This document shows, piece by piece, positions 18,501 through 22,683 of a DNA stretch of 32,000 bases. How positions within the stretch are numbered: the stretch's first letter is position 1; each line of letters opens with the position of its first letter. The DNA is from Candidatus Thorarchaeota archaeon (GTDB taxonomy: Archaea > Asgardarchaeota > Heimdallarchaeia > Hodarchaeales > Hodarchaeaceae). The position numbers and the translations under genes were made by a program. The DNA is taken from NCBI GenBank assembly GCA_048882505.1, contig JBHLRO010000003.1, positions 120,001-152,000 of the forward strand, in the 5' to 3' direction. The notes beneath the pieces are model-generated. The model searched no databases. It had not been told where the DNA came from and saw only the letters and a list, made by a program, of their open reading frames with translations.

Positions 18501-20054
18501 TTAAAATTCTGAGGAGTACCGCTGTACAAGTGATTGTGTTTCCTTAAGATATTCCTCCAACCTTATCTTATCAATTCGCTCCTTTATTGAGTAACTCTGA
18601 ATTACCGAATCCCATTTCTGAAAATCCTCATTTATTTTGTTAATCTCCAATTTGATCCTATCTTCCAAGCGGTGAAATTGATTGATTTTTGCTTCCTCTT
18701 CTATCTGTTCGAGTATTGATAACGCATTTTCAAATTCGCCCTCAATAATCAACAGTTTTGCTTTGAGAATGGAAAACTCAACAAGTGTAGGAGAAAAACA
18801 CTGCTCAGCCTTGCTATCAAATTGATCGTCGATTAATCTGTGGGCTTCATGGAGGACCGTTTTGTCTTCTGCGATTTTAAATTCGTCCAGGTAAAGCTCG
18901 ATCAAATGAAAGACAACTATAAATGATAGATCTTTATCTACGGTCGCTAATGCAGATACCGATTGTGGAACATTCTCCTTGTTTAATAAATCAAAAAAGA
19001 TTCCCTGTGCTTTTGCTCTATCAATAATACGCGAACTAGACTTTAGAAAGATTGCTTCAGCGAGAGAACCGTTTAATTGCACTATTTTATTAGGCGAACT
19101 ACGGGCAAATTCCTGAAATCGGAGAATCGCATTCTGTGCTTTTGATCGATTCTTCGATTCAATATAAAGCTGAATCAGAGGTAGAAAGCTATATGAAAGC
19201 ACAACAGGATTTCCAATACTAAGGCAGAAATCGAAGGCATGTTCTAAAACCTTTTCGGCCATCTCTAATTCCCCTAGTTGATAATACATTAAACCTTTCA
19301 GGGAATTGACTAAACTTATTCCTTGAACATCGCTTATTGAAACAAAGAGTTCCATGGCTTCAGTTAGTTTGTCATTAACGCTGCCAAGATCCCCTTCTCT
19401 GAGAAATTGTTGCCCTTGCCAGGCAAAAATCCACGCCATCCCTTGCTTTGCACCAATCGATTCAAAGTAGCCAAGACTAGCTTCAAGTAGTTTGATATAC
19501 CCAGTTCGATCTTTCATCGCTTGTTTGATAAATGCCATATAGTATAATGCTTTCCCTCTGATGTACAGGTTAGTTTTGTTTAATTCCAGACTCTTTTCGA
19601 AATGTTTGTACGCCAAATCATTATTGATTTGGTAATAGTGTGCCATCCCAAGCAGATACTCAAGGAATGACCTCCAAAAGCAGACTACATCCGATTGATC
19701 TGAAAAGGTTTGAAATTTTCTCTTGATCGCCCTTTTCGCTGTCATCCCACTCGTTATTGCCTCAGTAATATGGCCATCAGTGATTTGAACATTCATGATT
19801 GATATTAAATTAATCAAACTCGAAATCGAAAACGAATCATCAAAATCAATCTCTGGAATTTTATCTACGAGAGTTTTTGCCTGATCAATCTTACCAAGGC
19901 GGATTAGAGTTCTGATATGATAAGAAAGACAAATTGCAATTTCAAGCTCAGTCAAGGTGGAAGAGGGATCTACGTAACCTGGTTTTTCCAATTCCTCTAG
20001 AAGATTAACATATTCACCAGTCACATAAAGGTGCTCTAGTCTTTCCTGATCCAT
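18501..20054 (-). CDS. Tetratricopeptide-repeat protein
   Basis: Repeated TPR-like helical pairs (LGMAHYYQ..AYKHFEKSLEL; KGLMYYQLGELEMAEKVLEHA) and a helical C-terminus. Confidence 0.75.
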   Translation of the reverse strand: MDQERLEHLYVTGEYVNLLEELEKPGYVDPSSTLTELEIAICLSYHIRTLIRLGKIDQAKTLVDKIPEIDFDDSFSISSLINLISIMNVQITDGHITEAITSGMTAKRAIKRKFQTFSDQSDVVCFWRSFLEYLLGMAHYYQINNDLAYKHFEKSLELNKTNLYIRGKALYYMAFIKQAMKDRTGYIKLLEASLGYFESIGAKQGMAWIFAWQGQQFLREGDLGSVNDKLTEAMELFVSISDVQGISLVNSLKGLMYYQLGELEMAEKVLEHAFDFCLSIGNPVVLSYSFLPLIQLYIESKNRSKAQNAILRFQEFARSSPNKIVQLNGSLAEAIFLKSSSRIIDRAKAQGIFFDLLNKENVPQSVSALATVDKDLSFIVVFHLIELYLDEFKIAEDKTVLHEAHRLIDDQFDSKAEQCFSPTLVEFSILKAKLLIIEGEFENALSILEQIEEEAKINQFHRLEDRIKLEINKINEDFQKWDSVIQSYSIKERIDKIRLEEYLKETQSLVQRYSSEF

Positions 20055-20420
20055 TTATACTCAAAATCCCTTCAATTCTCATCTTATATCCAGATTAAAA
20101 TTCACAAGTAACTGTGATTCTTAGATGTCGGAAAATCATCCTTCTTTTCTAACAAAAACAGCCCGATTTTAATACCATCTTCTACGAATAGCGACCGACC
20201 CCTGTGTAAATATCTTTCACATTAAATGTGTTTTAATTTGATTTCATCAACGGTAAATCCATTACCAGCAAAATGCCAATTCTTAAGTCCAGATTTTAAG
20301 AACCTCTTTGAAATACACAGAATTTTCCTTTATTCTACTGAAAGCCTTATAAGAAACTAGGCATATTGTGATATCGCTTAACCAGAAATAGCTTATGAGC
20401 GAAAAAATGGGGAATCAAAA

Positions 20421-21368
20421 CTGGCAAGGCCAATTCGGATTTTACTATTTGGTTTAGAAAGGAGCGGTAAAACAACACTGGTCAATTCATTTCAGGCAGG
20501 TCAGTTCACGGAGGGAACACCGTTTACGGCTCAAAGCTTATCAGAACTCACTTACAATAATACGCATTTTAGTATCCTAGAGATCGGAGGAAGACGAGAA
20601 GTAAGAAATTTCGTCTCGGAGTTTGTCGGGTATGTGGACGCGATTATCTTCGTTATAGATGGAAGCGATGAACGAAAGTTTGATGAAGTGGCCTCGGAGT
20701 TCCAAAAAATACTTACTCATCCTCAATCAACAGGAAAACCAATAGCGGTTCTTTTTCACAAAAATGACATTGCACTCATCCATCCGTCCATCATCATTGA
20801 GCGGCTCGATCTGCTCGATAGGTACGATCGGCCCCATAGAGTGTTCTTGAGTACTGCACAAGAGCCTCGTGAGTTCGAACGAGTTCTTACTTGGATCCAA
20901 ACGCGTCTCAATGAAGACGAGACCCTAGTGGATGACCAAGAAGCCAGGCTGTTTAGAATTTATATTCTCGATATGTTGAATAACCAACAGGAGGGACTGG
21001 CGATTCTAGCTTTACTCGGTCAGCTCGAAATAATGGCTCGCACTGGACAGGTAAGCTATGATCGAGATAAAATCCTAACCATCCTACGTAAGTCCAGGGC
21101 GGCTGGGGAATTAGAATTTAACGAGCATTATAAAATTTGGAAAGTAACGGAAAAGGGGAAAGAAATACTAAATACGTCAGACTTGATAGAGAGCAGCAAA
21201 TATGAAAAGATCAAATCTCTGATTGACGAATCCAACATCGCTTCTGGTTCTTCTAAAGACAAAGAATCAATTGGATACAGAGAACAGAAAGAATTATTAG
21301 AGGAATTTGATCTAGAAGAGCTCGCAGAACTGTATAAGAAAAAATCTGATGAAAAACGTGGGTATTAG
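20421..21368 (+). CDS. Arf-family-like small GTPase (degenerate motifs) fused to a C-terminal winged-helix-like domain; start uncertain (CTG 20421, or ATG 20395 with a frameshift)
   Basis: Frame is open from 20382 and encodes RILLFGLERSGKTT (G1), LEIGG (G3), DAIIFVIDGSD, HKND (G4) and STAQ (G5). The ORF track starts at 20634 and misses G1-G3. Confidence 0.85.
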   Translation: MARPIRILLFGLERSGKTTLVNSFQAGQFTEGTPFTAQSLSELTYNNTHFSILEIGGRREVRNFVSEFVGYVDAIIFVIDGSDERKFDEVASEFQKILTHPQSTGKPIAVLFHKNDIALIHPSIIIERLDLLDRYDRPHRVFLSTAQEPREFERVLTWIQTRLNEDETLVDDQEARLFRIYILDMLNNQQEGLAILALLGQLEIMARTGQVSYDRDKILTILRKSRAAGELEFNEHYKIWKVTEKGKEILNTSDLIESSKYEKIKSLIDESNIASGSSKDKESIGYREQKELLEEFDLEELAELYKKKSDEKRGY

Positions 21369-21579
21369 CTGTTACAGCGTTATCTCTTATCAATTTTGAT
21401 AGATTTTTGTTTCGAAGCTCCGCTTTGCCTTTCAACGAGTTCCCTCAATAATCTTTGGTTCTTCAAGAGCCAGACAATCAATTGGATATAGGGAACAGAA
21501 AGATCTCCTTGATGAATTTGATATAGAGGAGCCTGTGAAACTGTACGAAGAGAAATCCGATGAAAAACGTTGTTATTAA
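21243..21579 (+). repeat. Degenerate direct repeat, 2 x 126 bp (21243-21368 and 21454-21579), corresponding to the last 42 codons of the GTPase gene
   Basis: Manual alignment gives 96/126 identical nt, no indels, offset 211 bp. Both copies end in an in-frame stop. Confidence 0.9.
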
Positions 21580-21668
21580 TCGTTTCAAGTCATAACTTGG
21601 TGGGATCTTCCAAAACTTACCTTGAAATAAGATCAGAGGTGTTGTTTAACGCGGTGAGCTCATTTTCC

Positions 21669-22001
21669 TTACGGAAGACTATATATTAGATCATAGGTCT
21701 TGAAAGCTAAGTTGAAAACAATTAAAACGAAAATAGAACCTCCTAGAAATACTAGCCCCTCTATCAACAATAGAACAGGCAAATCCACAATAAAAACTAA
21801 TGGCATGTTAATAAGGTAGCCAATTGAAAAAAATCCAACTAAAAAGGTGGCAATTTTCCATCTTTTAACAATCCGAGTTTCTTTTAGGAGTTCCTGAATT
21901 CTACGGGAATAGATCCATGCGGTAGCAAAAAAAACGAACCCGACGAGACAACAAATTGTGTTGAAAATCTGTAGCATGAATAGAATATCTGCATCAGCCA
22001 A
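21669..22001 (-). CDS. Small hypothetical membrane protein (about 3 TM helices)
   Basis: Three hydrophobic stretches, with a basic loop (SRRIQELLKETRIVKRWK) between the first two. TTG start. Confidence 0.6.
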   Translation of the reverse strand: MADADILFMLQIFNTICCLVGFVFFATAWIYSRRIQELLKETRIVKRWKIATFLVGFFSIGYLINMPLVFIVDLPVLLLIEGLVFLGGSIFVLIVFNLAFKTYDLIYSLP

Positions 22002-22188
22002 TAGCTATCACCGTACCTATTAATCATTGAATAAGATTAATATGAGTCACACAAATGATAATAGGTATATATGTCCATTCTGAACCGATATTAATAATAG
22101 GCCGAATACAAGAGGATATATTCAACTTTTTTGGAACTATCGGCAATTGAATGTTGTGTTTCGAATAAAAATACTTACGGGGTTTCAA

Positions 22189-22683
22189 ATGCGAGCTGTA
22201 TTCGTGGCTGGTCTCACAGAGCTTGGTCCTGGAATCATCAATCTTTGTCCAGAAACTACACTAGATGAAGAAGAGCGAATAAAGCTTGCTCTAAAAATAA
22301 TCCCCGCTGGCGGTATGGAGGGTGATTTTGTTGTCGTTAGCTTCAAGAAGGTGTTTAAAGCAGCGGCAATTATCGTTCCGGTTCCAGCGTTTGATGAGTC
22401 ACAGGATGTGCGTGGCTCATATGCAGCTTTCGGATTCCTGCTTGATAAAAATGTAAATTCTTTACCATATCAAGATATACTGAAGGAGATAACAGAGGTT
22501 TGCAAAAAGAATAATATTCTTTCAGTTCCTATATTAAAGAATCTCTGTACCGAACTGTATACAACGTTGAAAGAGTCCCGCAACCTAAACCTTAAGATTA
22601 GTTATGGAGTGGAAGTTAAACTACCGTTCAACCCTCTAAAGACCACTGGGGAAACGTTACGAGACGCAATGAAGCGTTTATAA
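22189..22683 (+). CDS. Hypothetical protein, putative longin/uDENN-like domain
   Basis: Starts MRAVFVAGLTELGPGIINLCP, matching the hydrophobic-strand/GP/xxxxP opening of uDENN/longin domains. Later DVRGSYAAFGFLL. GGGGT upstream of ATG 22189. The fold call is tentative. Confidence 0.6.
   Translation: MRAVFVAGLTELGPGIINLCPETTLDEEERIKLALKIIPAGGMEGDFVVVSFKKVFKAAAIIVPVPAFDESQDVRGSYAAFGFLLDKNVNSLPYQDILKEITEVCKKNNILSVPILKNLCTELYTTLKESRNLNLKISYGVEVKLPFNPLKTTGETLRDAMKRL

Follow-up and report, generated by a model that had tools for sequence, protein, structure and literature searches.

The window, by which we mean the whole 32,000-nt stretch of Asgard archaeal DNA analysed, contains a gene for a small 3-TM membrane protein (TM3; 21669–22001, minus strand) and, divergently transcribed from it, a gene for an NPRL2-type longin (22189–22683, plus strand). 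On balance, these two probably constitute a functional two-gene cassette whose longin regulates an Arf-family GTPase, with the GTPase and TPR genes alongside being incidental neighbours. Within Heimdall-group Asgard relatives, only the longin and 3-TM genes stay together out of the four. The Arf-type GTPase and TPR genes became neighbours recently, so the window shows a pared-down local form of the longin/Arf GTPase/membrane-protein cassettes known from other Asgard archaea. The cassette would itself be accessory, patchy in distribution and passed between lineages as one unit.

All four genes were confirmed as ORFs within 4.2 kb, in agreement with the gene content proposed by the sequence-only reading of this DNA. 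A TPR-repeat protein of 517 aa is encoded at 18501–20054 (minus strand) and, as that reading had described, is transcribed divergently from the Arf-family GTPase (315 aa; 20421–21368, plus strand). It matches Pfam TPR_19 at 32.8 bits (cutoff 25), with TPR_8, TPR_12, TPR_2 and TPR_1 also matching below their cutoffs. TM3, a protein of 110 aa with a TTG start, is separated from the 164-aa longin by a 187-bp intergenic region (22002–22188) that presumably holds both promoters. Small ORFs and a NIF3 gene lie 3′ of the longin. The mixed orientations, already noted as a weakness of a four-gene linkage, rule out a single operon. The genome carries about 73 small-GTPase ORFs in 4.3 Mb, from which we calculate a chance of roughly 5–7% that any one small cassette has a GTPase no more than about 1.5 kb away, and TPR paralogues number at least 17 at E ≤ 1e-8. 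The juxtaposition by itself is therefore only mildly unusual.

The assignment of the longin rests on its predicted fold and motifs. The model of the 164-aa protein (pLDDT 86) displays the longin order strand-strand-helix-strand-strand-strand-helix-helix, and its top PDB matches are the NPRL2 chains of GATOR1 (9o5a_H, 7t3a_B, 7t3b_B and 6ces_N) together with yeast Npr2 (8adl_S), aligned over the full 164 aa with E values of 2e-7 to 5e-4 and TM-scores by query of 0.65–0.71. DENND1A and SNARE longins rank behind these chains, and the ESM Atlas model of the protein matches NPRL2, NPRL3, SMCR8 and uDENN. The earlier description of a longin/uDENN-like protein thus held, with NPRL2 as the best structural match. 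NPRL2 (Npr2 in yeast) is the arginine-finger subunit of GATOR1/SEACIT and acts as a GAP for RagA/Gtr1 (PDB 7t3a, 7t3b, 6ces, 9o5a and 8adl). The window protein shares with it the fold, a GP motif at strand 2 and an arginine before the fifth strand; unlike NPRL2, it is a longin alone, lacking the C-terminal domains, and the two are only about 17% identical. No match was found in Pfam or NCBIfam, including Pfam NPR2 (PF06218), and a longin profile searched against PDB sequences did not find NPRL2, so that the kinship suggested here stands on fold and short motifs. On this basis the protein is a longin of the GTPase-regulating kind, resembling NPRL2, FLCN and SMCR8.

The GP motif has been defined at the loop or start of the second strand in FLCN/SMCR8-type longins of Asgard archaea (PMC12290439). 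In the window protein it corresponds to G13-P14, at the start of strand 2 (residues 13–20). Within the clade of 23 longins to which the protein belongs, the glycine is kept in 22 and the proline in 15, with asparagine replacing proline in seven. Arg75 lies just ahead of the fifth strand (residues 77–86), a position in sequence resembling that of NPRL2 Arg78, and is a candidate arginine finger. Of the 100 family genes, 86 have this arginine (46/48, 24/29 and, in the window's clade, 16/23, where the remaining seven longins lack it). Eukaryotic GAP longins act as heterodimers of two longin subunits, the second being for example NPRL3, FNIP or C9orf72. Here the longin is the only gene of its family in the genome, with no second copy and no adjoining longin gene, and, in a further difference from NPRL2, an NPRL3-like or DEPDC5-like partner gene was not found.

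We then compared the gene neighbourhoods of 100 related longin genes from 76 Asgard genomes, which fall into three clades of 48, 29 and 23 genes. An Arf GTPase is encoded on the same strand within three genes of the longin in 62 of the 100, and a polytopic membrane protein is the first or second gene downstream in 82. Two arrangements recur: longin, two membrane proteins of roughly 215 aa and then an Arf GTPase of roughly 300 aa (33 loci), and longin, an Arf GTPase of roughly 180 aa and then a membrane protein of roughly 280 aa (21 loci). The best Pfam score was Arf for all three linked GTPases scanned, one per arrangement, and most longin-linked GTPases retain the canonical switch II Gln. The relatives of the window longin are thus linked to Arf-type rather than, as for NPRL2, Rag-type GTPases. 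At the family level, these results uphold the suggestion of a conserved GTPase–regulator–membrane module. It fails in the window's own clade, in which 22 of 23 longins have no GTPase within three genes; the sole exception is the window itself, where the GTPase is two genes 5′ of the longin and the opposite-strand 3-TM gene sits between them. The operonic GTPase has been lost from this clade, and the function of its longin could have changed. Neither the roughly 215-aa nor the roughly 280-aa family of 6–7-TM proteins has a member in the window's genome, and TM3 is not detectably related to the membrane proteins of the other longin cassettes (hhalign probability <3%). In contrast to those operons, the membrane partner in the window is a 110-aa 3-TM protein encoded on the opposite strand.

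TM3 is the only faithful partner of the longin in this clade. It has three hydrophobic segments and no Pfam family above threshold, and five orthologues show 81% mean column identity. TM3 adjoins the longin in six genomes (the window's own, G000; its nearest, G016; and G003, G020, G001 and G023), and in G007 a divergent longin-like ORF with a matching C-terminal tail occupies the longin position. In total, a longin or longin-like gene lies beside TM3 at seven of nine strong TM3 loci, one of the remaining two being at a contig end. The divergent orientation recurs in G016, G003, G020, G001 and G007, and the adjacency spans two taxonomic families. Synteny across Asgard genomes, proposed earlier as a check on the neighbourhood, therefore upheld the 3-TM gene beside the longin but not the four genes as a set.

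Comparison of the two near-identical genomes G000 and G016 revealed that the pair differs between them as one unit. An island at 21414–22665, containing TM3, the longin and a repeat copy, is only 60–85% identical in nucleotides between the genomes and has sharp edges, against 96–99% in both flanks; dS reaches 1.4 in TM3 and saturation in the longin, compared with 0.03–0.08 in the flanks. Since dN is low where dS is saturated, the longin and TM3 are under purifying selection; dN/dS against G016 is 0.08 for TM3, and that of the GTPase is 0.11. TM3 and the longin were probably exchanged together between lineages by allele replacement. Protein identity is 98% for the GTPase, 69% for the longin, 81% for TM3 and 48% for the TPR protein, indicating that the GTPase did not diverge together with the pair. 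A repeat search and blastn against G016 further identified a 132-nt direct repeat (plus strand) whose first copy makes up the final 3′ part of the GTPase gene (21245–21376) and whose second, 76% identical to it, lies at 21456–21587. The second copy duplicates the GTPase C-terminal tail out of place and is non-functional. In G016 the order is GTPase, TPR on the same strand, 4.3 kb and then the 3-TM/longin pair, and the 4.3 kb (TPR, a 197-aa ORF and a ParA-like ATPase) separates the two repeat copies.

The GTPase is a clear Arf-family member (Pfam Arf, E 1e-25) whose alignment and model add a winged-helix domain and a C-terminal acidic helix. Its modelled G domain matches Arl3, Arf1 and Arl8b (E about 1e-14, TM-score by target about 0.9), and the family alignment shows a GxxxxGKT P-loop, the conserved switch I Thr, HKND at G4 and STAQ. 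Switch II reads EIGGR, or EVGGR in most of the family, placing Arg at the position of the catalytic Gln; one or the other occurs in 43 of 49 family members, and Gln in none. The first ATG, GTG or TTG in frame is a GTG at 20634, 3′ of the P-loop. Comparison with 21 relatives places the start at a CTG at 20421, giving 315 aa, whereas a database annotation begins at an ATT at 20433 (311 aa). Among the 22 family members compared, the start-codon column holds CTG in 13, TTG in eight and ATG in one, and all 22 carry GGGG, GGAG or GAGG at the same distance upstream; in the window this Shine-Dalgarno-like GGGG (20409–20412) lies 8 nt 5′ of the proposed CTG in the aligned upstream regions. From that start only five residues precede the first strand, and the protein lacks an N-terminal amphipathic helix. 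The structural matches include GerdArfR1 and HodArfR1 (E about 1e-12). The family shares the Arf-type G domain of Asgard ArfR/AArf proteins (bioRxiv 10.1101/2024.02.28.582541; PMC11914678; PDB 8oum and 8ouk) but differs from them in having Arg for the catalytic Gln, often His for Asn in NKxD, no N-terminal amphipathic helix, and the added winged-helix domain and acidic C-terminal helix.

The distribution of this GTPase argues against the co-localization of GTPase and TPR with the longin that the sequence-only reading had envisaged. Of 22 congeneric genomes, 20 carry exactly one member of this GTPase family, while only six yielded the longin (five firmly, one at E 9e-6). In 17 other congeners, some with short contigs, the GTPase has no longin, TM3 or related TPR gene closer than about 7 kb. 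Two congeners have TPR orthologues that adjoin neither GTPase nor longin, and TPR–GTPase adjacency is seen only in G000 and, differently arranged, in G016. The window GTPase falls in a broad Arf-like superclade that holds longin-linked GTPases, and in a pooled search these were its best matches, above every paralogue from its own genome. It is at best one candidate client of the longin, since the genome encodes about ten Arf-like GTPases.

In the mechanism that we favour, the longin would most likely regulate an Arf-family GTPase, most probably as a GAP that uses Arg75, which would sit beside the GP motif, and the 3-TM protein would bring it to the membrane. The GTPase and TPR genes, both intact, would be no dedicated, co-inherited part of a module; they would have arrived here only in the lineage of G000 and its nearest relative, at a recombination-prone spot marked by the duplicated GTPase 3′ end. 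That duplication, the G016 insert with its ParA-like ATPase at exactly the same point and the sharp island would also fit an unlikely account in which accessory genes simply gathered at a variable site without functional relation and the longin is, for example, an adaptor or dimerisation module unconnected with GTPases. The unlinked longins of the clade, the Asn-for-Pro changes and the missing arginines favour this too, but it is countered by the TM3–longin adjacency, seen across two taxonomic families and intact after joint allele replacement, by purifying selection on both genes and by the fact that the window protein and most of its clade keep both Arg75 and the GP motif. A lineage-specific four-gene system, in which the longin acts on the adjacent Arf-like GTPase, with the 3-TM protein as their anchor and the TPR protein as scaffold, seems rather unlikely. 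The compactness of the four genes, the kinship of the GTPase with longin-linked GTPases, the GTPase–TPR adjacency kept in both genomes despite rearrangement, and a Gln-less family that might need a residue in trans all speak for it; the mixed strands, the mismatch in phyletic range, the absence of the partners beside the GTPase in congeners and the separate divergence of GTPase and longin speak against it, as does the Gln that longin-linked GTPases elsewhere mostly retain and this one lacks.

An extension of that arrangement, which we consider improbable, is a minimal membrane-to-genome signalling path: the Gln-less winged-helix GTPase would be a switch coupling to DNA or to another winged-helix protein, captured in this lineage beside a membrane-tethered NPRL2-type longin whose Arg75 triggers hydrolysis in trans, with the TPR protein as scaffold. 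Very improbable is a role for the cassette in anti-virus defence or another conflict system. Hypervariability of the TPR, membrane-protein and longin genes between close strains would fit such a role, given that these three proteins are far less conserved between G000 and G016 than the flanks (97–98%), but a PADLOC search gave no defence-model match for any of the four proteins, Pfam identified no nuclease, protease or other effector domain, and the low dN/dS indicates old alleles and not positive selection.

The preferred reading, a TM3/longin cassette acting on an Arf-family GTPase, has a parallel in eukaryotes, where membrane proteins recruit longin GAP complexes: PQLC2 recruits WDR41-C9orf72-SMCR8, and LYCHOS/GPR155 recruits GATOR1. 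The shared idea, an analogy only, is that a membrane protein places a longin GAP near its GTPase. Asgard archaea also encode NPRL2-like longin proteins (bioRxiv 10.1101/2020.10.19.343400), and the window longin, from a Heimdall-group genome and of the same class by fold and motifs, is a new member of the Asgard GP-motif longins. Published work on these proteins named no partner and left ArfR or Rag clients open (PMC12290439; bioRxiv 10.1101/2020.10.19.343400); here, by contrast, linkage to an Arf GTPase and membrane protein is found in other clades, and in the window's clade linkage to the 3-TM protein alone. Dozens of small GTPases and numerous longin or roadblock proteins are encoded in Asgard genomes. 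According to published work, genome layout seldom reveals which regulator serves which GTPase (PMC10933270). The Gln-to-Arg, winged-helix, CTG-start, genus-wide Arf-like GTPase is a separate object of study. Longin relatives linked to Arf-family GTPases and membrane proteins provide a partial answer to the question of which GTPases, Arf-like or Rag-like, are the targets of GP-motif longins (PMC12290439), and TM3 and the longin offer a simple two-protein pair in which to study possible membrane recruitment of a putative GAP.

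The four open reading frames that a sequence-only reading had placed between 18501 and 22683, as a signalling neighbourhood of a TPR protein, an Arf-like GTPase, a three-transmembrane (3-TM) protein and a longin-like protein, are present exactly as described. The TPR gene (18501-20054, minus strand) encodes a 517-aa protein that scores above the Pfam TPR_19 cutoff. The GTPase (20421-21368, plus strand) matches Pfam Arf with an E value of 1e-25, and its AlphaFold model (pLDDT 79) comprises an Arf/Arl G domain followed by a winged-helix domain (residues 169-238) and terminal helices. 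Structure search aligned the G domain with Arl3 (5de3; E 2e-14, TM-score by target 0.89), and it also matches Arf1, Arl8b and the Asgard ArfR structures 8oum and 8ouk. The 3-TM frame (21669-22001, minus strand) encodes 110 aa with three hydrophobic segments; no Pfam family scored above threshold, NCBIfam and PADLOC were also empty, and an Atlas search returned generic helical bundles only. The longin (22189-22683, plus strand, 164 aa) likewise has no match in Pfam, NCBIfam or PADLOC. Further along the window, a small ORF at 23583-23828 carries a Cys-Pro-Val-Cys-Gly-Met motif and has a YHS-like metal-binding look, and downstream of it the ORF at 25223-25465 carries a Gly-Met-Asn-Cys-Gly-Arg-Cys motif of heavy-metal-associated look; both putative metal-binding ORFs, judged by sequence, seem unrelated to the four-gene region.

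The predicted structure of the longin (pLDDT 86) has the strand and helix order of a longin domain. Among solved structures, GATOR1's NPRL2 chains and yeast Npr2 fit it best (E 2e-7 to 5e-4; TM-score by query 0.65-0.71, ~162 columns aligned), with NPRL3, DENND1A, FLCN, SMCR8 and SNARE longins ranking below, and the ESM Atlas's own model of the protein gives the same picture. At the sequence level, neither Pfam nor comparison of the longin-family profile with PDB sequences returned a relevant NPRL2 match. An alignment of 19 relatives showed conservation of an N-terminal block containing a GP motif and of a D-x-R block ahead of strand 5. The same GP and D-x-R signature has been given for eukaryotic GAP longins and for a Heimdall-group longin class, in a study that left undecided whether the clients of these longins are Arf-related or Rag GTPases (PMC12290439); NPRL2-like longins had already been noted in Asgard archaea (bioRxiv 10.1101/2020.10.19.343400). 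Some longins of the window's clade (P0057, P0060, P0062, P0063 and the gene at 6763-7539 of locus L021) bear a C-terminal extension of ~90 aa that is winged-helix-like in appearance. These extended proteins, as predicted from sequence, recall the NPRL2/NPRL3 layout of a longin plus a C-terminal domain.

A profile search of 400 Asgard genomes placed longin-family genes at ~120 sites in 76 genomes, and 95 fetched loci were annotated with purpose-built HMMs. Three arrangements predominated: the longin followed by two paralogous ~215-aa membrane proteins and an Arf GTPase of ~300 aa (33 loci); the longin followed by those two membrane genes, with an Arf GTPase of ~305-320 aa immediately ahead of the longin (8 loci); and the longin, then an Arf GTPase of ~180 aa and a membrane protein of ~280 aa (21 loci). 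Pfam Arf was the best-scoring family for each of three GTPases scanned, one per arrangement, and most longin-linked GTPases retain the switch II Gln. A same-strand GTPase lies within three genes of 62 of 100 longin genes, and a polytopic membrane protein is the first or second gene downstream of 82 of 100; across the same loci GTPases account for 72 of 1101 genes and polytopic membrane proteins for 269 of 1101. An earlier study had concluded that, as a rule, Asgard GTPase genes do not share operons with those for longin or roadblock proteins (PMC10933270). Two such longin operons share one contig, in tandem or back to back, at L042, L097, L100 and L118 (among loci L042-L121).

Because of this linkage, the idea of a module of regulator, GTPase and membrane protein is well founded at the level of the longin family, where 59 of 100 genes are linked to both partners, but it does not extend to the window's own clade. 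A FastTree phylogeny of 99 longins resolved three clades with local SH-like support of 98-100. The window's clade has 23 members, all from its own class; a GTPase lies within three genes in the window alone (1/23), and a polytopic membrane gene is downstream in only 8 of the 23. This clade keeps a strict GP motif, with NP or GL at that position in the other two; all three clades conserve the Arg. The window's genome holds one longin-family gene and no member of the 215-aa or 280-aa membrane-protein families. A single family uniting all the membrane partners was rejected, hhalign probabilities being below 10% between all family pairs and below 3% between the window's 3-TM protein and the others. 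A 3-TM neighbour in locus L025 proved not to be homologous to the window's protein, and the 423-aa membrane gene that three congeners carry downstream of the longin is an MFS transporter, whose orthologue in the window's genome lies on another contig; we treat it as an ordinary neighbour.

The constant partner of the window's longin is instead the 3-TM gene. A search of 83 genomes from the class gave nine strong matches to its family, seven of them from the genus of the window and the other two from a sister family, and the gene adjoins the longin in the window's genome (G000), in the nearest genome (G016) and in G003, G020, G001 and G023. At a seventh locus (G007; L130 5346-6448), the divergent partner of the 3-TM gene is an ORF of 164 codons without a GP motif but with the C-terminal tail R-E-A-L-K-R-L that some GP-longins have; this ORF may be a longin that has diverged, or another longin or roadblock type that has taken the longin's place. 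Of the remaining two loci, one has no partner (G013) and the other ends at a contig edge (G022). Nucleotide identity between the window and the nearest genome is 96-99% on both sides of an island at 21414-22665, over which it drops to 60-85%; the island covers a repeat copy, the 3-TM gene and the longin, and its right-hand edge lies ~20 nt ahead of the longin stop codon. Synonymous divergence between the two genomes is 0.03-0.08 for flanking genes, 1.4 for the 3-TM gene and saturated for the longin, with low dN. The sharp island and high dS indicate that a distant allele replaced the two genes together, and the low dN against such dS indicates purifying selection on both.

Comparison of loci indicates that the GTPase and TPR genes are recent neighbours of this pair, and the four genes as a conserved set were not borne out. 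The GTPase family is represented by a single gene in each of 20 of the genus's 22 genomes, and no member was found in the rest of the class at E 1e-60; six of those 22 genomes gave a longin hit, five of them firm and one at E 9e-6. At 17 other congeneric GTPase loci, some on short contigs, there is no longin, 3-TM gene or related TPR gene within ~7 kb, and the contexts of more distant orthologues varied too. A 164-aa gene beside one GTPase orthologue (L035) is glyoxalase-like and not a longin. TPR orthologues in G001 and G003 adjoin neither the GTPase nor the longin. Small-GTPase ORFs number ~73 in the 4.3-Mb genome of the window (one every 59 kb), and the TPR protein has at least 17 paralogues there; these numbers set the chance level for such juxtapositions. 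A quick tree of the GTPases put the window's family and the longin-linked GTPases in one unresolved Arf-like superclade, where the window's family forms its own long-stemmed clade next to nine further GTPases of the same genome; the tree did not place the window's GTPase as an orthologue of the longin-linked ones.

The junction itself is rearranged. A 132-nt direct repeat (76% identity; 21245-21376 and 21456-21587) consists of the GTPase 3′ end and a displaced duplicate, 79 nt apart in the window. The order in the nearest genome is GTPase, a same-strand TPR gene (48% identical), a 197-aa ORF, a ParA-like ATPase, a repeat copy, the 3-TM gene and the longin, with the three intervening genes occupying 4.3 kb exactly between the two repeat copies; this layout resembles the scar of an inserted element. 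The nearest genome's contig ends at a point matching window position 20058, and because a broken TPR copy begins another contig of the same genome, its GTPase may be flanked by TPR genes on both sides.

A frameshifted or broken GTPase gene was suspected at first because its frame has no ATG, GTG or TTG ahead of the P-loop, the first in-frame one coming after switch II, and off-frame ATGs lie upstream at 20395 and 20407. When 22 family members, 20 of the same genus, were aligned upstream of the LLYG strand, a common start column emerged (CTG in 13, TTG in 8, ATG in 1), seven codons ahead of LLYG in most. At 8-12 nt ahead of this column there is a G-rich Shine-Dalgarno-like motif, and in several genomes in-frame stops directly precede it (for example TAA-CTG and TAA-AAA-CTG). 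Together with a dN/dS of 0.11 against the nearest genome (6 non-synonymous and 15 synonymous changes), these features led us to reject a −1 frameshift or pseudogene; the aligned column, G-rich motif and preceding stops indicate an intact gene that begins at CTG 20421 (315 aa), where a database annotation has ATT 20433. Conserved CTG/TTG/ATG initiation appears to extend across this GTPase-winged-helix family (window 20382-20435; L020, L122-L126, L136-L149), and many members would consequently be truncated or mis-started by gene callers; ~11 of 53 homologues in the database start downstream of the P-loop. The family is without an N-terminal helix and conserves the winged helix and an acidic C-terminal motif or helix. 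Its switch II reads EVGGR or EIGGR in 43 of 49 members, Arg replacing the catalytic Gln, which none retains (alignment A2), and G4 is often HKxD.

The best-supported account of the region is a two-gene accessory cassette of a small membrane protein and an NPRL2-type longin, to which the TPR gene has no demonstrated tie. Complex prediction with GTPase residues 1-165, the longin, GTP and Mg scored 0.00 (mark 0.32); it lends the pairing no support and carries no weight either way. The adjacent GTPase is a possible, not a dedicated, client. Family history, fold and motifs make it most likely that the longin regulates an Arf-family GTPase at the membrane.
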